Below, one piece after another: positions 1,411 to 50,536 of a DNA stretch of 64,000 nucleotides. Under the pieces are notes generated by a model. That model worked only from the letters and a program-made list of their open reading frames with translations. It ran no database searches and had not been told where the DNA came from. Source of the DNA: an uncultured Candidatus Saccharibacteria bacterium (GTDB lineage: Bacteria > Patescibacteriota > Saccharimonadia > Saccharimonadales > JALRHH01); contig CAZLJP010000001.1 in the NCBI GenBank assembly GCA_964559915.1, positions 129,510 to 193,509 on the forward strand, given 5' to 3'. Both the position numbers and the translations under genes were made by a program. Every line of letters starts with the position of its first letter. Positions within the stretch are counted from its first letter, which is position 1.

Positions 1411-3243
1411 CTACTTTGCTTGGCGCTTACGCTTATTGGGATCCAATTCACGTTTGCGGAGGCGGAGATTTTTGGGGGTGACTTCTAGGAGTTCGTCGTT
1501 CTCTATAAAGTCGAGACATTGTTCGAGACTGAAGATGGTTGGAGGTGTAAGTTGGACGACACCATCGCTCCCAGAAGCACGCATGTTAGTCAGGTGTTTA
1601 GCCTTACAGACATTAATTTCCATGTCCTCTTGACGAGTGTTCAAACCAATAATCTGACCAGCATAGACTTTTTCTGCAGGACCGACGTAGGTAGTACCAC
1701 GAGCTTCGGCATTTTGCAGTGCGTACGGAGTGGTCGTACCAGTCTCAAACGAAATCAATACTCCGTTACGTAGCTGTTGCAGCGGTGCGCTCTGAGGTTC
1801 AAAACCGATAACCAAGCTGTTCATAACAATAGTACCCTTGGTGTTAGTCATCAGAATGTTACGCATACCCAGCAGTGCACGTGTTGGCATAACATATATA
1901 AGCTTAGTCACACCCTTGGGACTGGCAAATTGTTCTTTAAGGTTAGCACGGCGTTGGCCGAGTTCCATTTGTACAGCGCCCACATGTTCTGCGGGTACTT
2001 CAATAATAACTTCTTCAACCGGCTCGACTGTTTGCCCCTTTTCTTCATGGGTCACAACCTGAGGACGACCAACTTCAAACTCATAGCCTTCGCGGCGCAT
2101 AGTTTCAATCAGCACGCCAAGATGCAGCTCACCACGGCCCGCTACGGTAAAGCCAATACCGTCCTCTTGGACCCTTAGACCAACATTAGTCTCCAGCTCT
2201 TTGTCCAAGCGTTCAGCAATCTGGCGCGAGGTACTGAATTCACTCTCCTGTCCCTTGAACGGGCTAGTGTTAGGACCCAAGTAAATACGCAGTGTTGGCG
2301 CCTCTACCTCGATTGTAGGTAAGGCTTCTGGGCTGATTGCATCCGCCACTGTCTCGCCAATCTGAGCATCGGCTATACCTGTCAGTTGCACGATATCACC
2401 TGCGATGCCGCCGGGTACTTCAAACTTACTGACACCATGACTCATAAATACATTATCAACGCGGGCCCTGGCCTGTGTGCCGTCTTTTTTACAGAGTACA
2501 ACTTGGTCGCCAGGCTTAACCGCACCGCGTGTAATACGGCCGATAGCGTATTTGCCCTTGAACGTATCGTGGGCTAACGCAGTTACCAACATCTGGAATG
2601 GCTTATCGAGCTCTACTGTTGGGGCCGGAATCTTATCTATTACCGCTTCAAAAATCGGTTCCAAATCTGCAGCCATTTCTGGGTCGGTAGGTGGCGTAGC
2701 CCAGCTTTTACCGGCACGACCAATGGCATAATAGACTGGATAATGCAGTTGGTCTTCGTGTACAGCTAGCTCTAGGAATAAATCAGCTAGCTCGTCTTCA
2801 ACTTCCTTGATACGACTACCTGGTTTATCAATCTTGTTGATAATCACAATTGGCTTTAGCTCTGCTGCCAAGGCCTTGCCTAATACAAATTTAGTCTGCG
2901 GCATAGGGCCTTCTTGGGCATCAACAATCAACAAACAACCATCAGCTAGGTTGAGCGTACGCTCTACCTCACCACTAAAGTCGGCGTGCCCGGGTGTATC
3001 AATAATATTAATACGGTAATCACCGTGTTGCACAGCAGTGACCTTGGCGGTGATTGTGATACCACGCTCTTTTTCCTGATCGCCACTGTCCATAATAAGT
3101 TCTTGGCCCATTTCGGCCTGGTTATCACGGAATGTCTGAGACTGCTTGAGCAAGCCATCAACCAAGGTAGTTTTACCGTGGTCAACATGCGCGATAATCG
3201 CGATATTTCTAATCTTGGTTGGGTCTTGTTTCATGCAATACAA
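1411..3243 (-). CDS. typA: Translational GTPase TypA/BipA
   Basis: NIAIIAHVDHGKTTLVD G1 motif, EF-G-like domain order, about 600 aa. The start may be the M four codons downstream. Confidence 0.9.
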   Translation of the reverse strand: MYCMKQDPTKIRNIAIIAHVDHGKTTLVDGLLKQSQTFRDNQAEMGQELIMDSGDQEKERGITITAKVTAVQHGDYRINIIDTPGHADFSGEVERTLNLADGCLLIVDAQEGPMPQTKFVLGKALAAELKPIVIINKIDKPGSRIKEVEDELADLFLELAVHEDQLHYPVYYAIGRAGKSWATPPTDPEMAADLEPIFEAVIDKIPAPTVELDKPFQMLVTALAHDTFKGKYAIGRITRGAVKPGDQVVLCKKDGTQARARVDNVFMSHGVSKFEVPGGIAGDIVQLTGIADAQIGETVADAISPEALPTIEVEAPTLRIYLGPNTSPFKGQESEFSTSRQIAERLDKELETNVGLRVQEDGIGFTVAGRGELHLGVLIETMRREGYEFEVGRPQVVTHEEKGQTVEPVEEVIIEVPAEHVGAVQMELGQRRANLKEQFASPKGVTKLIYVMPTRALLGMRNILMTNTKGTIVMNSLVIGFEPQSAPLQQLRNGVLISFETGTTTPYALQNAEARGTTYVGPAEKVYAGQIIGLNTRQEDMEINVCKAKHLTNMRASGSDGVVQLTPPTIFSLEQCLDFIENDELLEVTPKNLRLRKRELDPNKRKRQAK

Positions 3244-3586: not shown

Positions 3587-3649
3587 AATCTTAATATATT
3601 ATAACACTCTTATCCTAATCCTGTCAATACTGCGTGCTACAATAAAGGT

Positions 3650-4828
3650 ATGAGTTTTGAACCACTTGCAGAGAAAATGCGACCAGCCAAGCTAGCTGAT
3701 GTAATTGGGCAGGAGCATTTGGTTACTGCGGGCAAGATTATCCACGAGATTATTGCGGCCAAGCAGCCTGTCAGCCTGATACTGTGGGGGCCGCCTGGCA
3801 GTGGCAAAACCACTTTGGCGCGAATTATCGCCACAGAGACGGATGCTGAGTTTATAGAACTGTCGGCTGTGAGGGCTGGCAAAGCCGATGTAGTAAAGGT
3901 CATAGAGCATGCGCAGCAAAACCAACGTTTGGCACAACGCACTATTTTATTCGTAGATGAAATTCACCGCTTTAATAAAGCCCAGCAAGATGCCTTTTTG
4001 CCCTATGTAGAAGACGGCACGATTACCCTGATTGGAGCTACTACAGAGAACCCTAGTTTTGAGGTGATTACACCCCTGTTATCCCGTTCACGCGTATTGG
4101 TGCTGGAGCCTCTTGACAAAGGGTCTATTACCACCGTTGTCAAGACAGCTGCTAAGAAGTTAAAACTGACTGCTAAGCGCTTGCCAGCCAGAAGTATTGA
4201 TTTGCTAGCTGAGCTATCTGGCGGTGACGCACGCGTTGCGCTGGGTAACCTCGAGTTAGCATTACAACTGACCAAAAATACTATCACGCCAGAGATTATT
4301 AAAACAGCTGCCCAAAAACGTATCCCAGGCTATGACAAAGCTGGCGAAATGCATTACAGCGTCATTAGTGCCTTCATCAAATCCATGCGTGGCAGTGATG
4401 CTAATGCCACACTGTATTATCTGGCCCGTATGCTACAAGCTGGTGAGGACCCTAAATTTATTGCCAGGCGCATGGTGATATTTGCCAGCGAGGATGTCGG
4501 CATAGCCAGCTCACCGGCACTCAATTTAGCCATCAGCACGTTTCAGGCAGTGGAGCGAATCGGCATGCCCGAGTGTCAGTACAACCTCTTTCACTGTGCA
4601 CTCGTGCTAGCCAAATGTCAGAAATCACGCGTCGTAGCCGACGCTATGCACAAGGCGCAGGCCGCAGCCAAGGAGCATCCTGATACCCCAGTGCCGCTAC
4701 ACCTGCGCAATGCTCCGACTACACTTATGAAAGATTTAGGCTATAGCAAAGATTACAAATGGGAGGCCGATTTTACACACCCACGAGGCTTTTTGCCGGA
4801 CGAATTGTCCGGGCTGGAGCTGCTGTAG
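3650..4828 (+). CDS. rarA: Replication-associated recombination protein A (AAA+ ATPase RarA/MgsA)
   Basis: MRP..L...IGQEHL N-terminus, Walker A GPPGSGKTTLA, and MgsA C-terminal helical domains. Confidence 0.85.
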   Translation: MSFEPLAEKMRPAKLADVIGQEHLVTAGKIIHEIIAAKQPVSLILWGPPGSGKTTLARIIATETDAEFIELSAVRAGKADVVKVIEHAQQNQRLAQRTILFVDEIHRFNKAQQDAFLPYVEDGTITLIGATTENPSFEVITPLLSRSRVLVLEPLDKGSITTVVKTAAKKLKLTAKRLPARSIDLLAELSGGDARVALGNLELALQLTKNTITPEIIKTAAQKRIPGYDKAGEMHYSVISAFIKSMRGSDANATLYYLARMLQAGEDPKFIARRMVIFASEDVGIASSPALNLAISTFQAVERIGMPECQYNLFHCALVLAKCQKSRVVADAMHKAQAAAKEHPDTPVPLHLRNAPTTLMKDLGYSKDYKWEADFTHPRGFLPDELSGLELL

Positions 4829-5957
4829 ATTTACGCTTGATTATCTTGACCTGTTCCCATGGCAAGCCTTCACGCCCAAAGTGTCCGTACGCTGCAGTCT
4901 GCAGATAGATTGGCTGACGTAGCTTCAATCCCTCGACAATCCCTTGTACGGATGTGTCTAACAATTGCTCGGCAAAGGTTTGGATTTTGTCTGCCGATAC
5001 CTTGTTAGTGCCAAATGTATCAATGGTAAAGTTAACCGGCTTTTTGGCGCCAATGTAGTAAGCAAGCGCCACTTCGGCTTTTGCAGCCAGCCCGTTAGCT
5101 ACAATGTTTTTGGCGATATAACGCGCTGCATAGGCGCCTGAACGGTCGACCTTACTTGGGTCTTTGCCACTAAAAGCCCCACCACCGACGCGGGCATAGC
5201 CACCGTAGCCGTCAACCACAATCTTACGCCCAGTTAGCCCGGCGTCAGATGCTGGACCCGGCGTATACCAAACACCTGTACCGTTCACCACAATATCTTT
5301 CTCGGCAATCACATAGCCGTAACGTTGAAGTACTGGCGTAATAACATGCTGATAGACATCCGCCCTGACACGCTCCAGACTAATCTTCTCATTGTGCGGC
5401 ACGGCAATTGTCACATGCTCAACAGCAGCTGGCTTATCATCTTCGTAGCGCACCACCACTTGTGCCTTCCCATCTGGACGGAGATGGGGCAAAGTGCCGT
5501 CCTCACGAGCAGTATCTAACGCACGCGTTAGCGCGTGTGCAAGACTTATGGGTAGCGGGAGATATTCTGGTGTTTCGTCGCTTGCAAAACCAAACATTAG
5601 CCCTTGGTCGCCTGCTCCAAAGTCGTCTACACCCACCGAAATTTCTGCTGATTGCTGATGAATGTAATTATCAATTGGTGACGTATCACTAAATCCCCAC
5701 TTAGGCTCCGTGTATCCCAGACGACGAATCTCTTGTCTGGCGATAGCCTCGATATCAACCTTTGCGGTAGTATTGATTTCCCCGGCTAAAATAACCCGGT
5801 TATTGCCCACGAGAGTTTCTACGGCCGTGCGACCATTCGGGTCTTGTGCCAGCACTGCATCTACAATTGCATCGCTAATTTGATCGGCCACCTTATCCGG
5901 ATGACCAGCAGCCACACTCTCCGACGCAAAATGCGTAATTTTTTTAACTTTTGACAT
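4773..5957 (-). CDS. metK: S-adenosylmethionine synthetase
   Basis: Collinear MetK signature (GHPDK..DQISD, GAGDQG, AAYGHFGR) over 394 aa. C-terminal extension overlaps the rarA 3' end by 56 nt. Confidence 0.9.
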   Translation of the reverse strand: MSKVKKITHFASESVAAGHPDKVADQISDAIVDAVLAQDPNGRTAVETLVGNNRVILAGEINTTAKVDIEAIARQEIRRLGYTEPKWGFSDTSPIDNYIHQQSAEISVGVDDFGAGDQGLMFGFASDETPEYLPLPISLAHALTRALDTAREDGTLPHLRPDGKAQVVVRYEDDKPAAVEHVTIAVPHNEKISLERVRADVYQHVITPVLQRYGYVIAEKDIVVNGTGVWYTPGPASDAGLTGRKIVVDGYGGYARVGGGAFSGKDPSKVDRSGAYAARYIAKNIVANGLAAKAEVALAYYIGAKKPVNFTIDTFGTNKVSADKIQTFAEQLLDTSVQGIVEGLKLRQPIYLQTAAYGHFGREGLPWEQVKIIKRKSTAAPARTIRPAKSLVGV

Positions 5958-6229: not shown

Positions 6230-6433
6230 AAAAAATATCCCTTCTGCTCAATCAGCAAGAAAGGGATAGGATGTTCGTTAAAATCACCGTATATCTTTCC
6301 GCTTTTATGAGCGGCTAGATGGAGCACCTTCATGGATTAACGGCCTTTTCGTCTATCCCATGGGTTGCCGGCAGGTCATCGAGCTAGATCTCTCGCTGCA
6401 CTCTTTATATTTGTAAAAATTATCAAAGAAAGG
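6230..6433 (-). promoter_or_regulatory. Structured about 200-nt leader upstream of the orf87-metK operon (candidate riboswitch/attenuator)
   Basis: Minus-sense leader contains GAUGA (kink-turn-like) and CCGGCAACCC motifs. It ends in an imperfect 11-bp hairpin followed by AUAUUUUUU immediately before the start codon. Confidence 0.3.
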
Positions 6434-8868: not shown

Positions 8869-8870
8869 TG

Positions 8871-8913
8871 AAAAAGCGTTCATTTGCCAGCGGCAGATGG
8901 ACGCTTTTTCTTT
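8871..8913 (+). terminator. Rho-independent terminator after tRNA-Gln
   Basis: GCGTTCATTTGC...GCAGATGGACGC hairpin followed by TTTTTCTTT. Confidence 0.7.
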
Positions 8914-9014
8914 ACTCGGACGATAGGGATTCGAACGACCGAGTCCAGTGGACTCGGGCCGCCTGAAACCCGGAGGGTGACCGGAGCAAAAGTAATTTTC
9001 TTTTGCTGGTCAGG

Positions 9015-9044
9015 TCGAATCCCTCATCCCCAGCCATGAAAAAA
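9015..9044 (+). repeat. Direct repeat of the tRNA-Gln 3' end (T-loop half, T-stem, acceptor 3' strand, CCA and 8 nt of downstream flank)
   Basis: About 28-30 nt identical to 8847..8876 (TCGAATCCCTCATCCCCAGCCATGAAAAA). The 5' half of the tRNA is absent. Confidence 0.8.
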
Positions 9045-9070
9045 GACCGACATTTGTCGGTCTTTTTTTG
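9038..9070. terminator. Bidirectional rho-independent terminator
   Basis: AGACCGACA-TTT-GTCGGTCT perfect hairpin flanked by an A-run and a T-run. Serves the pseudo-tRNA copy (+) and gene 9084..9614 (-). Confidence 0.7.
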
Positions 9071-9727: not shown

Positions 9728-10300
9728 GTGAAGCAAAATACTAAACCCAGGAACGGACAATTCCTCCTAGCTGACTATCAGACTGCGTTTGTATCAGCGG
9801 CTACCCTGCAATTTGCCAAGAACGAGGCTGAACGGTCCGAGACTGTTCTAATGCACCAGCTTACCTCACTTGGTGGTGGCGCCTATCTCAACCCTGGTAC
9901 TGTTGACTTACAAACTGACGTCAGTCGGGCTAGTTTGGATGCGCACATCAAAAAAGTACAAGTTGCTCAGCTAAACGCAATTAGCGCAGACCAGCTATAT
10001 GCGATGAGCGCCCAAGATACCAAAGATTACGTAGGCCGCAAAGTTCGCATAACGCCCAAGTCTAGCCGTAAAGACGCCATCGAAGCTGTTTGGTTTAACC
10101 CACACACGGGTTATCGTGTGAGTCCCATGACGCGCAGCCAGATAACCGGTATCATCACTGAGCTATGGCTCGATAAAAATGTACTGGTACTCAAGCCAGC
10201 CAAACTGACCCGTATGATTAATCCAGAGTTGCAGCAATATCTAGTCTACGTTGTAGACCCGGCCACTCTGGAACCTATGATAGATTTGGCGCTGGTCTAG
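9728..10300 (+). CDS. Hypothetical protein
   Basis: 190-aa ORF with no recognisable motifs. Confidence 0.4.
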   Translation: MKQNTKPRNGQFLLADYQTAFVSAATLQFAKNEAERSETVLMHQLTSLGGGAYLNPGTVDLQTDVSRASLDAHIKKVQVAQLNAISADQLYAMSAQDTKDYVGRKVRITPKSSRKDAIEAVWFNPHTGYRVSPMTRSQITGIITELWLDKNVLVLKPAKLTRMINPELQQYLVYVVDPATLEPMIDLALV

Positions 10301-15219: not shown

Positions 15220-17325
15220 CTAGTGTGACTTCTTTCTACGAATGAGGCCAAAACAGAAACCAACTACAATCTTGATAAGCTCCCAGAGCCCCATGTCTTC
15301 TTCTGGGTCATGGTGCTTTGGTGTGGGTTGCGCATCGTCTCTCTTCTTGCGCTCTTCTTCAAGCCTACGAACTTCGTCTGCAGTAAGTATGTACTCCGTC
15401 TCTTCGTTAAAGGTGCGGACCACAAAGACGACCAATATACCGATAAGTGACACAACGGCTAGCCACAAAATTTCCCAAACGGCTGCAAAACCTACCAAGA
15501 AGGCAAAAACAGAAATGTAGATGCCCGCTGCGGTATTCTTAGGAATAATAATGTCTTCATACTTGGGCTTGGGTAGGCCCTTCTGTTTCATTTCCCAGAA
15601 CTGGTCCTGTGATGTTACTTGCGGAATAGATGTGTAGTTATAGAACTGTGGTGGCGAAACAGTTGCCCACTCAAGAGTGCGACCATCCCACGGGTCACCA
15701 GTTGTATCACGTAGCCGCTTTTTCTGAATGAAACTCGCGAGGATTTGAGCAAGCTGCAGAGCGGTGCCAATTGCAATGATAATGCCGCCGAGCAACATAC
15801 ATATATACAGTGGCTGCCAGCCAGTTGATGCGTCGTAATGGTCAAGACGTCTTGTGGCACCCATGATTCCCAACACATACATTGGGATAAATGACATACA
15901 GAAACCTACAATCCAGCACCAGAAAGCTTGGCGGCCAATCCGTTCATTAAGTTTGATACCGGCAATTTTTGGGAACCAATAGCTAATGGCACAGAAAATA
16001 CCAAACAACACACCACCAATGACATTTGAATGGAAGTGTGCGACTAAGAACAGGCTATTATGCAGCTGAAAATCGACTGGCGGTATGGCCAAAACTAAGC
16101 CCGAAAGGCCACCAATAGTAAAGATTGAGACAAAACCGAGGAACCATAGCATTGGTGTGTCAAACCGTATTCGGCCCTTGTGCATCGTAGCAATCCAGGT
16201 GAAGAACAATACTGCTGTGGGGATGCCAATCAGTAGTGTCATAAAGCCGAACCAAGCATTGACGTTAGCGCTTGCGCCCATAGTGAAGAAGTGGTGGAGC
16301 CATACAGATAATGCAAGCGCTGAAACACCCGCCATACCAAGCACATTGGAGGTATAGCTAGCAATCTTCTTGCGGCTGAAGGTCGAAACAACTTCCGAGA
16401 AGACACCAAAAGCCGGTAACATCAGGATATAGACTTCAGGGTGTCCCCACATCCAGATAAGGTTGGTATACATCATCGGGTCGCCACCAGCTGTAGTCGT
16501 AAAGAAGTGCGTACCAAAGGCTCTATCAAAGAACATCAAGAAAAGCGTAGCGGTAAGTAGTGGAAAGACAGCAACCGCCATAAGCATGCTAAATAGTGAA
16601 CCCCAGGTGAAGAGTGGCATCTTCATCAACGTCATGCCCTTAGCACGCATTTTTAGAATCGTCATAATAAAGTTAATCGCACCCAGCGTGGTACCAATAC
16701 CCGAAATCTGCAAACTCCATATCCAGTAGTCCACGCCTACCCCAGGACTAAATTCCTTGCCTGATAGTGGTGCAACCGCCAGCCAGCCAGTCGCAGCGTA
16801 TTCACCACCAAGCAGGAAGAACATGTTAACCATCAGTACACCGCCAATATAGAGCCAGAATCCAAGCGTATTGAGGAATGGTGATGCCAAATCGCGCGCG
16901 CCAATCTGTAGTGGCACAATATAGTTAATCAATCCAAAGATAAATGCCATAGCCACAAAGAAGACCATGATATTGCCGTGCGCAGTAAAGATTTGTTGGA
17001 AGTGATCCGCAGACAGATAGCCATGTTGGGCTTCCCCTAAACCTGGCATATTGCTAGAACCGAGTGCTTGTTGCAGCCAAATCATAATGGCGTCCAGGCC
17101 ACCACGTAGCAGCATAAAGCCACCCGCGATAAAGTACATGATACCAATCTTCTTAGGGTCGACGGACGTTAGCCACTCTTTCCAGAGCCACTTCCATCGC
17201 TTGGTATAGGTCAGGTATCCGGCGATTAGTATGAAAAGCGCAAAAAAGGCTGCTGAGCCAGCAATAGTGAACCACTCGTGCGGCAGTGCGTGGCCGTTTA
17301 GCTTACCAAGTAGAAATTCTCTCAT
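15220..17325 (-). CDS. cyoB: Cytochrome o ubiquinol oxidase subunit I
   Basis: 701 aa, heme-copper oxidase subunit I signatures (WGHPEVYILMLPAFG, histidine ligands). Confidence 0.9.
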   Translation of the reverse strand: MREFLLGKLNGHALPHEWFTIAGSAAFFALFILIAGYLTYTKRWKWLWKEWLTSVDPKKIGIMYFIAGGFMLLRGGLDAIMIWLQQALGSSNMPGLGEAQHGYLSADHFQQIFTAHGNIMVFFVAMAFIFGLINYIVPLQIGARDLASPFLNTLGFWLYIGGVLMVNMFFLLGGEYAATGWLAVAPLSGKEFSPGVGVDYWIWSLQISGIGTTLGAINFIMTILKMRAKGMTLMKMPLFTWGSLFSMLMAVAVFPLLTATLFLMFFDRAFGTHFFTTTAGGDPMMYTNLIWMWGHPEVYILMLPAFGVFSEVVSTFSRKKIASYTSNVLGMAGVSALALSVWLHHFFTMGASANVNAWFGFMTLLIGIPTAVLFFTWIATMHKGRIRFDTPMLWFLGFVSIFTIGGLSGLVLAIPPVDFQLHNSLFLVAHFHSNVIGGVLFGIFCAISYWFPKIAGIKLNERIGRQAFWCWIVGFCMSFIPMYVLGIMGATRRLDHYDASTGWQPLYICMLLGGIIIAIGTALQLAQILASFIQKKRLRDTTGDPWDGRTLEWATVSPPQFYNYTSIPQVTSQDQFWEMKQKGLPKPKYEDIIIPKNTAAGIYISVFAFLVGFAAVWEILWLAVVSLIGILVVFVVRTFNEETEYILTADEVRRLEEERKKRDDAQPTPKHHDPEEDMGLWELIKIVVGFCFGLIRRKKSH

Positions 17326-40902: not shown

Positions 40903-41307
40903 TTAGGTATCAATAGGTGCTACTAGCTCACCTGCTATTTCGTGCACAGTGAGCTTGTCTAGGATGGAGTGTAGATCGTTAGCTTCAAGCTTTATCTCTT
41001 CCTCGTTTATATATGCGTAGACCGACGTATTGTCCACTACTTCAATATGGAAGATTGTAAAACGATTATTCTTGAGACTAATGGAGTGGCACGTTTCTCG
41101 CTCGGTAGAGGAAGCCTTAAATTCAACATGACTAATTGGTACTAGCTGGGCGCTGTCATTAAAGTCCCATGCAGAGCTTTTGTACATGTATTGAGAGTGA
41201 GGCGACTCGATACCTTCCCGCATCGGAACGTCTGCGGCATGTTCTTCTACATACTTCGTGAAGCGCTCGAAGACTATCTCTGGATTACCTAGTGTTTCAC
41301 CTGTCAT
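40903..41307 (-). CDS. Hypothetical protein
   Basis: 134-aa ORF with no recognisable domains. Confidence 0.4.
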   Translation of the reverse strand: MTGETLGNPEIVFERFTKYVEEHAADVPMREGIESPHSQYMYKSSAWDFNDSAQLVPISHVEFKASSTERETCHSISLKNNRFTIFHIEVVDNTSVYAYINEEEIKLEANDLHSILDKLTVHEIAGELVAPIDT

Positions 41308-41349
41308 ATAGGTATGTTACACCGTGCTTTCGGGTAACAGCAAGCATGA

Positions 41350-41386
41350 GCAAAACAAAAACACTCTGGTAAAACAGAGTGTTTTT
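41350..41386 (-). terminator. Hairpin plus T-run following the tRNA-Leu 3'-end copy
   Basis: Perfect 9-bp stem AACACTCTG/CAGAGTGTT. The minus sense is followed by TTTTTGTTTTG. Confidence 0.55.
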
Positions 41387-41389
41387 ATA

Positions 41390-41405
41390 TGGTGGGCAAG
41401 GAGGG
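41390..41405 (-). repeat. Direct repeat of the tRNA-Leu(TAA) 3' end (CCA, discriminator, acceptor 3' strand, T-stem 3' strand)
   Basis: TGGTGGGCAAGGAGGG is identical to the 3' end of the tRNA-Leu gene 150 bp away. A structured about 100-nt segment lies between the two. Confidence 0.75.
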
Positions 41406-41510
41406 GCCTCGCTACGCTCGCGCACTGCGTCATGCTCGGTGTAAACACCTGCGCGTGACTTCGTTGGCGTCGAACCCTTGCTTTGCAGTACGGGTTCTCG
41501 ATGTCACACC

Positions 41511-41543
41511 AACAAAAAACCGGTCAAAAGACCGGCTCTTTGT
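41511..41543 (-). terminator. Rho-independent terminator after tRNA-Leu(TAA)
   Basis: AGCCGGTC-TTTT-GACCGGTT hairpin followed by TTTTTTG (minus sense). Confidence 0.7.
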
Positions 41544-41628
41544 TGGTGGGCAAGGAGGGACTCGAACCCTCAAGCCTTGCGGCACATGATTTTAAGTCGT
41601 GCGCGTATACCAGTTCCGCCACTCGCCC
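41544..41628 (-). tRNA. tRNA-Leu (anticodon TAA), type II with long variable arm, CCA encoded
   Basis: Acceptor GGGCGAG/CTTGCCC, anticodon loop CTTAAAA, variable arm GCCGCAAGGC, T-arm GAGGGTTCGAGTCCCTC. The anticodon stem has one mismatch. Confidence 0.8.
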
Positions 41629-41765
41629 TGGAGGCACCTACGGGTAACGCTCCCGTCTACACGGTTTTGCAGACCGTTGCCTAACTTCTCGGCCAAGGCG
41701 CCACGGTATCGTGACGATACCGTGTGATTATAGCGTATTTATATATGTATTTAACAGTGTGATAG

Positions 41766-44310: not shown

Positions 44311-44439
44311 AAAACACCGAGTTGCTCGACGTTTTACATAGGTCATTATCAAAAATGCAAATTGGTGTGGGCAAGGAGACTCGAGGCTCCCGGCCGATGG
44401 CGGTGGGAGCATCCTGGCCAGTTAATTATTTTTGAAGAG
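44311..44439. repeat. 129-bp direct repeat copy (a); includes a mimic of the tRNA-Gly 3' end plus a terminator-like hairpin
   Basis: Core TGGTGTGGGCAAGGAGACTCGAGGCTCCCGGCCGATGGCGGTGGGAGCATCCTGGCCAGTTAATTATTTTTGAAGAG preceded by AAAACACCGAGTTGCTCGACGTTTTACA. About 90% identical to copy (b). Confidence 0.8.
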
Positions 44440-44482: not shown

Positions 44483-45334
44483 TTAAATGCAAGAATGATT
44501 GAAATCTAGATTTTTCTGAACATACTGTGTAAGCCAAATTGTGCCGCCAGCAGTTAGCGATGGTACAGTACAGTTATCTTTTGCATTCGCAAGGCTCGCA
44601 CCACTTGGTCGCCAGTTAGGCAGTCCAATGAGGTTACCGCTTGTGACTTGCGTAGTACCAACAATTTGCTCCCACTGAGACTTGGTAGAATATAGGCCAA
44701 CCGTTGCGCTCTTTGACTGATAGTATGCTGCAAAACCCTCTATTGCTGCTTTGTTGAGAGCTAGCCCACTGCCAGTCTGCCAAGAATTCATAGTTTCTAC
44801 ATCAAGCCACCACGTGTACTTGCTTGTGTCCGTACCAATCCCCGCAGCCTGTGCTCTGCTGACAAAGTATGCTTCTGTTTCAACTGAACGGTTCCAGCCG
44901 TACTGCCAAGAACAAGCTTCATTATTGTTTCTCACACCAGCACATGCACCGTAAGGAGTGGCACCAGTAGTCGGCCAGTTATTCCAGTTGTAGGCAGTAT
45001 CTTGTGCTGGGTTGGCGGTATTTACATACACCTGTACTTTTGGCTGCTTTGAGTTTGTATCAGCTTTAGCACTATTAGCCCACGCAAGCTGTTGGGTTAA
45101 ACACGTGTTGTATGAGGCTGCTGTACCACCGTTTACGCCCACAATACCAAAGTAATGGTCAGTTGGTAGCTTCTTGCCACACTGCGGGTAAGATACGTCG
45201 TAACCAACGTATTCAACTGTTGGAGTTGGACTAGGACTCCCCCCTCCGCCTACAGGTTTAGCTGCAAATGCCACAGATGGGACGAGCAAGACTGCAACAA
45301 ATGATACTGATACAAGGGATAATAATTTCTTCAT
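44483..45334 (-). CDS. Secreted glycoside-hydrolase-like protein (GH25/Rv2525c-like lysozyme-type fold), single-gene cassette between direct repeats
   Basis: Start at MKKLLSLVSVSFVAVLLVPSVAFA signal peptide. Mature region YVGYDVSYPQCGKKLPTDHYFGIVGVNGG...VQVYVNTANP resembles GH25/DUF1906 N-terminal strands. The fold call is tentative. Confidence 0.45.
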   Translation of the reverse strand: MKKLLSLVSVSFVAVLLVPSVAFAAKPVGGGGSPSPTPTVEYVGYDVSYPQCGKKLPTDHYFGIVGVNGGTAASYNTCLTQQLAWANSAKADTNSKQPKVQVYVNTANPAQDTAYNWNNWPTTGATPYGACAGVRNNNEACSWQYGWNRSVETEAYFVSRAQAAGIGTDTSKYTWWLDVETMNSWQTGSGLALNKAAIEGFAAYYQSKSATVGLYSTKSQWEQIVGTTQVTSGNLIGLPNWRPSGASLANAKDNCTVPSLTAGGTIWLTQYVQKNLDFNHSCI

Positions 45335-45384
45335 AAACAAATTATAACAGATTAGGCAGTGCGAGTCCTTTGTGGGTTGAATTA

Positions 45385-45512
45385 AAAAACACCAATTTGC
45401 TCGGTGTTTTACAGGCATAGATTTTACGAAATCATTGGTGCGGGCAAGGAGACTCAAGGCTCCCGACCGCAAGCGGTGGTAGCATCCTGGCCAGTTAATT
45501 ATTTTTGAAGAG
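45385..45512. repeat. 129-bp direct repeat copy (b); immediately downstream (minus sense) of tRNA-Gly and its terminator
   Basis: First 21 nt (TGGTGCGGGCAAGGAGACTCA) are identical to the tRNA-Gly 3' end including CCA. The remainder matches copy (a) only. Confidence 0.8.
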
Positions 45513-45544
45513 GCCAGGAGTTTGAATCTGGCTCAAACCAAGCA

Positions 45545-45572
45545 AAAACCCGGATTCTCATCCGGGTCTTGG
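45545..45572 (-). terminator. Rho-independent terminator after tRNA-Gly
   Basis: CCCGGA-TGAGAA-TCCGGG hairpin followed by TTTTTGCTT (minus sense). Confidence 0.7.
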
Positions 45573-45574
45573 CT

Positions 45575-46526: not shown

Positions 46527-46595
46527 TAGCCTCAGCTAACGCTGTTCACCAAACTGGTAATTCACGTTGCTCTCGCATCCAGTTCTCGTCTGGGG

Positions 46596-46642
46596 CCCTC
46601 CAGCCAAGAAAAATGGATCACGCTTCGGTGATCCATTTTTCT
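46596..46642. terminator. Bidirectional terminator (18-bp perfect inverted repeat)
   Basis: CCAAGAAAAATGGATCAC-GCTTCG-GTGATCCATTTTTCTTGG lies between the hydrolase gene (+) and tRNA-Phe (-). Confidence 0.7.
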
Positions 46643-49739: not shown

Positions 49740-49772
49740 GAACCGGTCCTTGCGACCGGTTTTTGAGTTGGT
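49740..49772 (+). terminator. Rho-independent terminator after tRNA-Leu(CAG)
   Basis: AACCGGTC-CTTGC-GACCGGTT hairpin followed by TTTGAG. Confidence 0.65.
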
Positions 49773-49878
49773 CTGAAAGTCTTGAACCCCAAAAAGTGGA
49801 GGTGAGAGTAACAGGCCCTATGTTTGTATGCGCACCAGAGCTTAATCTTAGGTATTGGATGAGGTGCTATAGGGGCTG

Positions 49879-50289: not shown

Positions 50290-50536
50290 GAGCTTATATA
50301 GTTACATATTATTGTTTGACTGCAAATAGCTTATAATCTTTAACAAGTCGCTTACGCGACCTACATCCTAGAGCCAGCCGCAAGGAAAGGTATGGAAATC
50401 AAATCAACAGAAAGAGACAGCTCGTCATGGGTACTTCTTTCTGTTGTCATTGCTGGAAACGGTGATGGGTGGCCGAAAGGTTGCCGCTCGTGGCGAGCTT
50501 TTTGTTTGCCGAATACAAACTTAGAAGGGTAATATT

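Follow-up and report, generated by a model that had tools for sequence, protein, structure and literature searches.

Split partial tRNA copies beside Saccharibacteria tRNA genes: a candidate family of miniature T-loop-targeting insertions

In a 64,000-nucleotide stretch from an uncultured Candidatus Saccharibacteria bacterium (the window), the last 16 nucleotides (nt) of a tRNA-Leu(UAA) gene occur a second time a short distance downstream of that gene, where they close a G+C-rich segment. What is this segment, and how did a second tRNA end come to lie behind it? An earlier note on the window had taken the 16-mer for a copy of the tRNA 3′ end, and it is clear that it is a true copy: TGGTGGGCAAGGAGGG is found at 41390..41405 and at 41544..41559, no third site exists in the window with 2 mismatches allowed, the chance expectation from shuffled sequence is 0.02, and none of 100 shuffles had two or more matches. 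The site at 41544..41559 is the 3′ end of tRNA-Leu(taa), which runs from 41628 to 41544 on the minus strand (ARAGORN; Rfam tRNA model, 52.8 bits). The site at 41390..41405 corresponds to tRNA positions 61-76, that is the T-stem 3′ strand, the acceptor 3′ strand, the discriminator and CCA. The Logan assembly of run SRR8931242 (L081) is 100% identical over the overlap, which comprises the tRNA from position 5, the segment and the copy; since this is an independent assembly, the structure is not an assembly artefact. The note had put forward no mechanism. We propose, at a probability of about 0.5, that the segment belongs to a family of miniature insertions, non-coding and non-autonomous, that target the T-loop of Saccharibacteria tRNA genes.

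Anatomy of the segment after tRNA-Leu(UAA)

What had been described as a 118-nt structured segment is a partial copy of the tRNA that is split in the T-loop after A58, with an inverted copy of the same half of the T-arm before it. The insertion downstream of tRNA-Leu amounts to 154 bp of non-coding DNA, or 193 bp if the older terminator is included, and all of its parts are read on the minus strand. The intact gene, with its CCA encoded (41544..41628), is followed by a first terminator, T1, a CCGGTC/GACCGG hairpin with a T-run (41507..41543); the palindrome of T1 extends outward, TTGGTG pairing with the CACCAA end of the tRNA. Next come an antisense copy of the T-stem 5′ strand and T-loop, TCGAgaACCC (41492..41501), a hairpin apex, GTACTGCAAAGCAA, that contains GCAAAGC (41478..41491), and a sense copy, GGGTTCGA, of tRNA positions 51-58 (41470..41477), where the tRNA copy is interrupted after A58. 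The antisense and sense pieces form a hairpin, and GCAAAGC/GCGAAGC mini-hairpin motifs recur at the apex position in relatives. The interruption is a foreign insert of 64 nt (41406..41469), which family alignment and RNAalifold divide into a linker, a conserved core hairpin and a 3′ hairpin. Within it lies the family signature, a 26-nt core, ACGCGCAG-GUGUUUACAC-CGAGCAUG (41431..41456, an exact pattern match), of the general form ACGCRCAG-hairpin-CGAGCAUG. The tRNA sequence then resumes with the exact 16-nt copy of positions 61-76, CCCTCCTTGCCCACCA (41390..41405), and a second terminator, T2, again a hairpin with a T-run, closes the module (41389..~41351). The tRNA-derived parts of the split copy are thus positions 51-58 and 61-76, with 64 foreign nt between them. 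By analogy with the L062/L079 pair of loci described below, T2 is probably the ancestral terminator of the tRNA.

The second hairpin that had been claimed to follow the copy is present: sequence inspection finds a hairpin with a T-run after tRNA-Leu and likewise after the copy, and a consensus terminator scan flagged the T1 hairpin alone, on the + strand only. The segment is also, as the earlier note had it, G+C-rich and structured, and it does end in the copy, but it is a composite rather than a single structured unit. Two of the stems proposed for it, GTGACATCG/CGAAGTCAC and AACCC/GGGTT, do appear in the minimum-free-energy fold, but that fold of the single window segment is no better than those of shuffled sequence (z = -0.95), and part of the claimed long stem (AAGTCAC) competes with a helix, GUCA/UGAC, that flanks the core and covaries across the family. 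The structural evidence is the covariation across the family, rather than the window sequence alone.

No open reading frame (ORF) lies within the insertion, and no sigma-70-type promoter was detected at the segment. Rfam gives no match to the segment, whether the gathering threshold is applied or the cutoff is relaxed to E <= 10; at the relaxed cutoff the tRNA model, too, finds nothing in 41300..41543. ARAGORN calls here are limited to 41544..41628 and 41629..41702, so that by these models the segment is neither a tRNA gene nor a pseudogene. The second of these calls is tRNA-Cys, which abuts tRNA-Leu(UAA) with zero spacer at 41628/41629, the Cys CCA being followed directly by Leu G1; the two tRNAs are neighbours in many of the Saccharibacteria loci examined.

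Recurrence of the insert and of the module layout

The earlier note had suggested looking for metagenomic relatives and for covarying structure, and for the Leu-type insert both were found. A metagenome scan with the pattern ACGCNCAGNNGTTTACNNCGAGCATG, in which 21 bases are specified and for which chance matches were estimated at well under a few, matched 90 stretches, and the window core at 41431..41456 fits it exactly. The counts that follow refer to 80 of these stretches with 81 motif instances, on contigs that carry no taxonomic assignment. A tRNA lies within ~330 nt of the core in 47 of the 81 instances, always on the same strand and in all but two upstream, mostly at a distance of 84-117 nt; these tRNAs represent ~23 anticodons and 14 amino-acid specificities. 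In about two thirds of the tRNA-linked instances a 9-19-nt copy of the 3′ part of the local tRNA follows 17-41 nt past the core. In non-class-II tRNAs this copy begins at position 57-62; for the longer Ser, Tyr and Leu tRNAs its start lies further along. Slightly more than half of these copies run through CCA. The spacing from tRNA to copy is constant, at 117-178 nt across dozens of loci, and in the relatives inspected the left junction falls after TTCG(A).

The flanking repeats are matched to the local target. In a set of 42 metagenomic relatives, the T-arm of the adjacent tRNA has a longest antisense match of 7.7 nt on average, as against 4.0 nt in shuffles, and in 31 of 32 cases the antisense piece lies 5′ of the sense one. 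Modules at different tRNAs have the 3′ hairpin of the insert in common, with up to 25 of 30 positions identical (an Arg against a Ser module); T1 shows generic similarity only between modules. When seven relatives from genome loci were aligned around the core, RNAalifold gave 12 pairs, 9 of them with compensatory changes. Five variable core-helix pairs are canonical in 73-100% of 62 unique sequences, compared with 47-88% in shuffles, and the observed pairing was reached by 0 of 1000 shuffles, in a control that takes no account of relatedness. A corresponding metagenome scan for the Gly-type module, described below, gave zero matches.

The same 26-nt core is also found in a free-standing element of ~150 nt, …UGUUUGYUCAUGAGGAGC-core-UGACGAAAUGGAGUC…, which lies among housekeeping genes with no adjacent tRNA (motif-oriented positions ~1126 in L113, ~9143 in L123, ~7266 in L143 and ~926 in L177). 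Rfam has no match to the element in these four loci, and known RNA families were likewise not recognised on the Leu segment or in a sibling module region, nor did seven module-rich loci yield any non-tRNA match. Hepatitis delta virus (HDV)-like and hammerhead ribozymes and group II intron domain V were compared with the modules by eye, which is weak evidence, and fitted their consensus poorly.

Modules of this layout recur in genomes. Eighty loci (L001-L080), one genome per species, were retrieved by means of the neighbouring LemA protein; all are from Saccharibacteria metagenome-assembled genomes (MAGs), with a best identity of 83%, and the window is chromosomal DNA of this group. A sequence screen for an exact copy of at least 12 nt of the tRNA 3′ part, 90-260 nt downstream of the gene, picked out 17 of the 234 tRNAs in these loci and the window; ~15 of the 17 look real by eye, and the copies begin at tRNA positions 54-70. 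An uninterrupted partial copy of more than 22 nt was found at none of the 234 tRNAs; duplication and insert are therefore coupled. A T-run followed by the complement of NCCA (TGGN) is present after 9 of the 17 module-bearing tRNAs and after 19 of the 215 others in the same set, and part of these 19 may be unrecognised decayed modules. One locus, L020, holds at least six modules; in L001 and L078 T1 and T2 are identical, which gives direct repeats of 95 nt and 51 nt. Each tRNA is present once in the loci examined. Decayed copies are frequent (Gly-B, Phe and Leu(cag) in the window; L003), as would be expected of selfish repeats.

A second insert family, of ~88 nt, consists of GUGARAA, a CAGUG-loop hairpin, GCAAGG, a long hairpin and a GCCGAAGGY hairpin. 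Inserts of this GUGAAA type lie at 9805..9890 in L055, at 3631..3716, 3911..3996 and 10365..10450 in L078 and at 15671..15757 in L002, with further examples in L011, L049, L061, L062, L067 and L079; they split partial tRNA copies at position 54/55. Mirror-image modules occur upstream of tRNAs; there the partial copy is of the 5′ part of the gene, and the split falls in the D-loop or D-arm, the variable loop or the acceptor stem. In L041 (~2150..2620) a 160-nt unit, made up of the 5′ part of tRNA-Leu(gag) and a GUGAAA-type insert, is tandemly repeated before the intact gene. In L061 (17617..17780) a full-length tRNA-Ala-like gene has its T-loop split by a GUGAAA-type insert; its D-stem is damaged, its anticodon is GAC, the 20-kb locus has no intact tRNA-Ala, and the gene seems to have been disrupted and to be decaying. 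A T-loop intron of a bacterial tRNA was considered and rejected, since the L061 gene is a pseudogene and removal of the insert does not give a 7-nt T-loop. Split tRNA halves or an external guide sequence were also set aside: an intact gene is always there, and the tail has no acceptor 5′ partner.

Within the window itself the earlier note had counted three such events in 64 kb; we count six as a minimum, four of them clear and two degenerate. Its statement that the architecture matches that of the Gln and Gly loci holds for the layout, but the Leu, Gln and Gly inserts are three sequence families; one common family for the three was rejected, as nhmmer detects no similarity between them. The tRNA-Gln(CUG) module (8869..9069, plus strand) has a T1, an antisense T-loop (8925..8936), a 78-nt insert with a CAGUG-loop hairpin and GGCCGCC (8937..9014), a 3′ copy (9015..9043) and a T2; it has a homolog at tRNA-Leu of L001, with compensatory stem changes. 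Module A of tRNA-Gly(GCC) (45384..45574, minus strand) has a T1, a 23-nt antisense copy of tRNA positions 40-62 (45507..45529), a sense copy of positions 44-51, a 26-nt hairpin insert (45459..45484), a 3′ copy (45436..45458) and a T2, with homologs in L017, L020 and L061. Module B (44363..44439, minus strand) is an older paralog with a diverged tRNA tail (..CCCACACCA) and lies beyond a cargo ORF for a secreted protein (44483..45331). The degenerate modules follow tRNA-Phe (46540..46607, minus strand) and tRNA-Leu(cag) (49768..49837, plus strand). The Phe module has CGAGAACTGGATGCGAGAGC in common with the tRNA-Phe module of L020; judged by sequence, the two may be orthologous and old.

Insertion, turnover and cargo

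The clearest view of an insertion comes from a sibling module. In L062 the DNA after tRNA-Leu(UAA), with its terminator, a promoter and the LemA start, aligns with the DNA past the second copy in L079 (81 of 117 positions identical), and it does not align with T1 of L079. It follows that L079 carries a 199-bp insertion, composed of T1, hairpin, insert and a 20-nt duplicate, and that T2 is the ancestral terminator there. An empty-site allele, which the earlier note had proposed seeking, was thus found for a sibling; at the window Leu locus the comparison is with an identical strain and with distant species. Upstream of tRNA-Gly(ccc) in L079 a partial 5′ copy of the gene resembles the L062 ortholog, and the intact L079 gene differs from it; because it is the partial copy and not the intact gene that resembles L062, the intact portion is the incoming sequence. 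At the tRNA-Leu site of the window locus most species are module-free; in L001, the closest relative, the site is occupied by a Gln-type module with the 95-nt repeat. At one tRNA-Val/LemA site L055 and L078 share a GUGAAA-type module with compensatory changes; either selection has kept it there or the site was targeted more than once.

Gene-carrying units stack at the same sites. Islands of 0.8-8.2 kb separate some tRNAs from distal modules, with perfect 19-nt copies in L138, L140 and L175, and the cargo ORFs past tRNA-Gly have no detectable homology among the window, L020, L061, L062, L017 and L001. In two islands a large serine recombinase lies beside the tRNA, of 513 aa in L140 (1268..2809) and 522 aa in L148 (2254..3822); the part of each protein that was compared with Pfam, its first 60 residues, matches the Resolvase N-terminal domain. 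These islands, of 4.5-5.6 kb, sit exactly at the CCA end of tRNA-Glu and separate the gene from T1; at their distal junction "..CACCA" stands directly before T1. L165, with a module at motif-oriented position 1311, is an island-free allele of L140 in which the module is already present; the islands therefore arrived after it, at the CCA end. We rejected them as a source of the modules: attR lies before T1, and L165 has a module and no island. The island-side sequences at the L140 crossover form the inverted repeats GAAAAATCCTCTTGG / GAAAATTCTCTTATGG.

The 30 window ORFs scanned against Pfam belong to housekeeping-type families (BipA, LeuRS, cytochrome oxidase, UvrC and others) or have no match, and LigA and HtpX were recognised by eye. 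Elsewhere in the window a LOOT RNA (Rfam RF03000, 55.7 bits against a gathering score of 46.4) was matched at 50365..50485 on the plus strand, just 5′ of a small ORF and ~0.6 kb past tRNA-Leu(cag). A SAM-I riboswitch (53.7 bits) lies at 6288..6413 on the minus strand, ~330 nt 5′ of the S-adenosylmethionine synthetase gene (4773..5957, minus strand).

Interpretation and meaning of the modules

If the Leu segment is a T-loop-targeting insertion, the starting state would have been the tRNA followed by T2, and the locus would have gained ~154 bp: a new T1, the antisense/sense T-arm hairpin, the structured insert and a duplicate of the tRNA 3′ end. The outcome would be an intact tRNA gene, preserved by the duplication of its 3′ end, and a partial copy split after A58, so that the 41390..41405 copy would be the displaced original tRNA 3′ end. 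The insert is probably the conserved, mobile part, and its hairpins may act as a recognition or recombination structure, folded as single-stranded DNA or RNA, that an enzyme provided in trans would use. Insertion may duplicate or re-template the target sequence; the same insert can stand beside many tRNAs with perfectly matched flanks because insertion would copy the target. Further, the sense-antisense-sense order, the palindrome centred on T1 that extends into CCA and the tRNA-matched arms suggest a hairpin or template-switch step, and not a simple conservative site-specific recombination. Candidate enzymes would be a tyrosine or serine recombinase, an HUH-type single-strand nuclease or a reverse transcriptase.

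Several observations weigh against this proposal. No recombinase, transposase or reverse transcriptase is present among the 30 window ORFs scanned against Pfam, no recurrent neighbour gene was found in the 80 metagenome loci (277 ORFs clustered), and the core was not found in viral contigs. The comparison available for the window Leu locus is with the identical strain L081 and with distant species (best LemA identity 83%), and the shuffle control for core pairing disregards the relatedness of the sequences. The module shared by L055 and L078 could have been kept by selection over a long time, as would suit a host function. Lastly, the matching of the antisense and sense arms to each new tRNA has no explanation in the model. 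An autonomous partner element was not found in the viral-contig scans or among the neighbours of the 80 metagenome loci. A phage origin was pursued in two viral-contig scans with core patterns, which gave only chance matches within coding DNA.

Each rival explanation covers part of the evidence and fails on other parts. The module might encode a functional small or 3′-trailer RNA, in which a structured scaffold carries a 12-22-nt single-stranded tail identical to the tRNA 3′ end and acts as a guide, with the guide 3′ of the scaffold as in TnpB/Cas12 RNAs, as a decoy for enzymes or toxins recognising tRNA 3′ ends, or as a regulator of the neighbouring tRNA. This would suit the covarying hairpins, which lie on the tRNA strand and whose non-Watson-Crick pairs are more often G-T than A-C (roughly 16 against 8 among the pairs listed), as well as the guide-length tail with a terminator directly after it. 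The insertion point right after the conserved TTCGA, which resembles a target-adjacent motif (TAM), the foot of the left hairpin at 19-21 nt from the junction, the tRNA-Val-site module kept in two species with compensatory changes and the presence of the 26-nt core in a free-standing conserved element point the same way. However, no promoter was detected and a terminator lies upstream, no TnpB, IscB, Cas or other partner was found among the scanned window ORFs or beside the 80 metagenomic copies, truncated or decayed copies are numerous, the acceptor 3′ strand lacks a pairing partner, so that the segment is not tRNA-like and is called neither by ARAGORN nor by the Rfam tRNA model, and the window fold is no better than shuffles. 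A functional RNA thus seems unlikely to us. It is quite unlikely, too, that the modules are passive scars, the attL and attR arms of an integrase-type island or prophage that entered the tRNA 3′ end and later lost its interior. Direct repeats of a tRNA 3′ part are the classic mark of tRNA-integrating elements, and at the window Leu locus the repeat of the tRNA 3′ part that bounds the inserted DNA is exact over 16 nt; stacked partial tRNAs are known (10.1101/2020.12.28.424599), large-serine-recombinase islands sit at the same tRNAs (L140, L148), and the cargo between tRNA-Gly and its distal module is variable. But deletion scars would not account for a tRNA-to-copy spacing held at 117-178 nt in dozens of loci or for one conserved, covarying insert beside ~23 tRNA anticodons; there are no coding remnants, the serine-recombinase islands came later, between tRNA and T1, with L165 having a module and no island, and a target-matched antisense arm is foreign to att scars.

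The remaining possibility is that no mobile element took part, and that snap-back template switching at the terminator hairpin and T-arm, followed by deletions, produced a spontaneous tandem-inversion duplication. It accounts well for the sense, antisense, sense order, for the T1-centred palindrome reaching into CCA (with a T-run and TGGN at 9 of 17 against 19 of 215 tRNAs), for the identical T1 and T2 of L001 and L078 with their 95-nt and 51-nt direct repeats, and for a copy that starts at position 61, as expected from a snap-back of the T-stem. What it leaves unaccounted for is the foreign insert, linker and apex that every copy has and that unrelated tRNAs have in common; moreover, T1 of L079 is new DNA, unrelated to the ancestral terminator, and an insert-free triplication was seen at 0 of 234 tRNAs. 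We consider such an origin very improbable.

Among known systems the tRNA-integrating islands come nearest, an example being the tycheposons of Prochlorococcus, in which partial tRNAs flank the islands and stack beside tRNA genes (10.1101/2020.12.28.424599). As in tycheposons, the partial tRNA is at the distal end, newcomers push older units outward, the cargo is variable and degenerate remnants persist (Gly modules A and B of the window). Islands of the tycheposon type have their own tyrosine or large serine recombinase and measure kilobases, whereas the modules here are ~140-200 bp and gene-free; further, the partial tRNA of a module is always split in the T-loop by a conserved insert with an antisense T-arm, and one family serves ~23 anticodons. 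Dehalococcoides islands integrated at the tmRNA gene ssrA are a second precedent (PMC3146451). They are comparable to the serine-recombinase islands of L140 and L148, and differ from the miniature modules, which have no recombinase and have their junction in the T-loop. The ssrA islands are reportedly bounded by direct repeats of ~20 bp of the 3′ end of the gene and use a serine recombinase.

Like miniature inverted-repeat transposable elements (MITEs) and repetitive extragenic palindromic doublets forming hairpins (REPINs), the modules are small, non-coding and rich in hairpins, with several diverged or decayed copies per genome and differences in presence between related genomes. Unlike these, they lack terminal inverted repeats of their own and a short fixed target duplication: their inverted repeats are T-arm copies derived from the target, and the duplication of the tRNA tail is 12-22 nt long and sometimes 50-95 nt (range 12-95). 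The attC sites of integrons and the attP hairpin of phage CTX are recombination sites that act as folded single strands. The modules share with them a structure more conserved than sequence, compensatory changes and two inverted target copies beside the junction, and, as with integron cassettes, empty and gene-carrying units stack at one site. In contrast to integrons, the modules would, judging from sequence, depend on neither IntI nor Xer and use no attI, their target being the tRNA T-loop; the junction GTTCGA does not fit the attC core GTTRRRY, and no integrase was found among the scanned window ORFs. Elements of the IS200/IS605 group, such as IS608, are not known to produce a target duplication or an antisense target copy, and TnpB guide RNAs consist of a scaffold and a guide. 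The modules resemble miniatures of this group in their insertion 3′ of a pentanucleotide, TTCGA, and in having subterminal hairpins at both ends, the left one ~19-21 nt from the junction; they resemble TnpB guide RNAs in having a structured scaffold with 16-22 nt of flanking target behind it. They differ in that neither TnpA nor TnpB has a Pfam match among the 30 scanned window ORFs, the tRNA tail is duplicated, an antisense target copy is present and no RNA promoter was detected.

The module family is widespread and apparently undescribed, relative to Rfam and to a full-text literature search. That integrase-bearing islands stack partial tRNAs is well known; what appear to be new are the gene-free size of ~140-200 bp, the splitting of the T-loop by covarying insert families, the target-derived antisense hairpin and the use of ~23 anticodons by one insert family. 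It is possible, though we hold it tentatively, that the modules represent a novel class of non-autonomous mobile element, or of RNA- or single-strand-templated insertion system, that recognises the universally conserved T-loop (in sister families the D-loop) of any tRNA gene, brings in a structured cassette, regenerates the gene by copying the target by way of a fold-back or hairpin intermediate and could act as a landing pad for small gene cassettes in these streamlined genomes. A categorically new mechanism is a serious possibility, though less likely than not.

Saccharibacteria genomes are very small, and six of the nine tRNA loci in the 64-kb window carry modules. If the modules are mobile, they would add a way of genome change that has gone unrecognised in this phylum and would mark hotspots for small gene cassettes; they would also be a candidate new insertion chemistry at the T-loop, one of the most conserved of all biological sequences, that leaves the gene intact. 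If they are instead RNAs, they would form a new tRNA-linked family of structured RNA. In either case, the modules can mislead the annotation of tRNAs, att sites and prophages in MAGs of Saccharibacteria.

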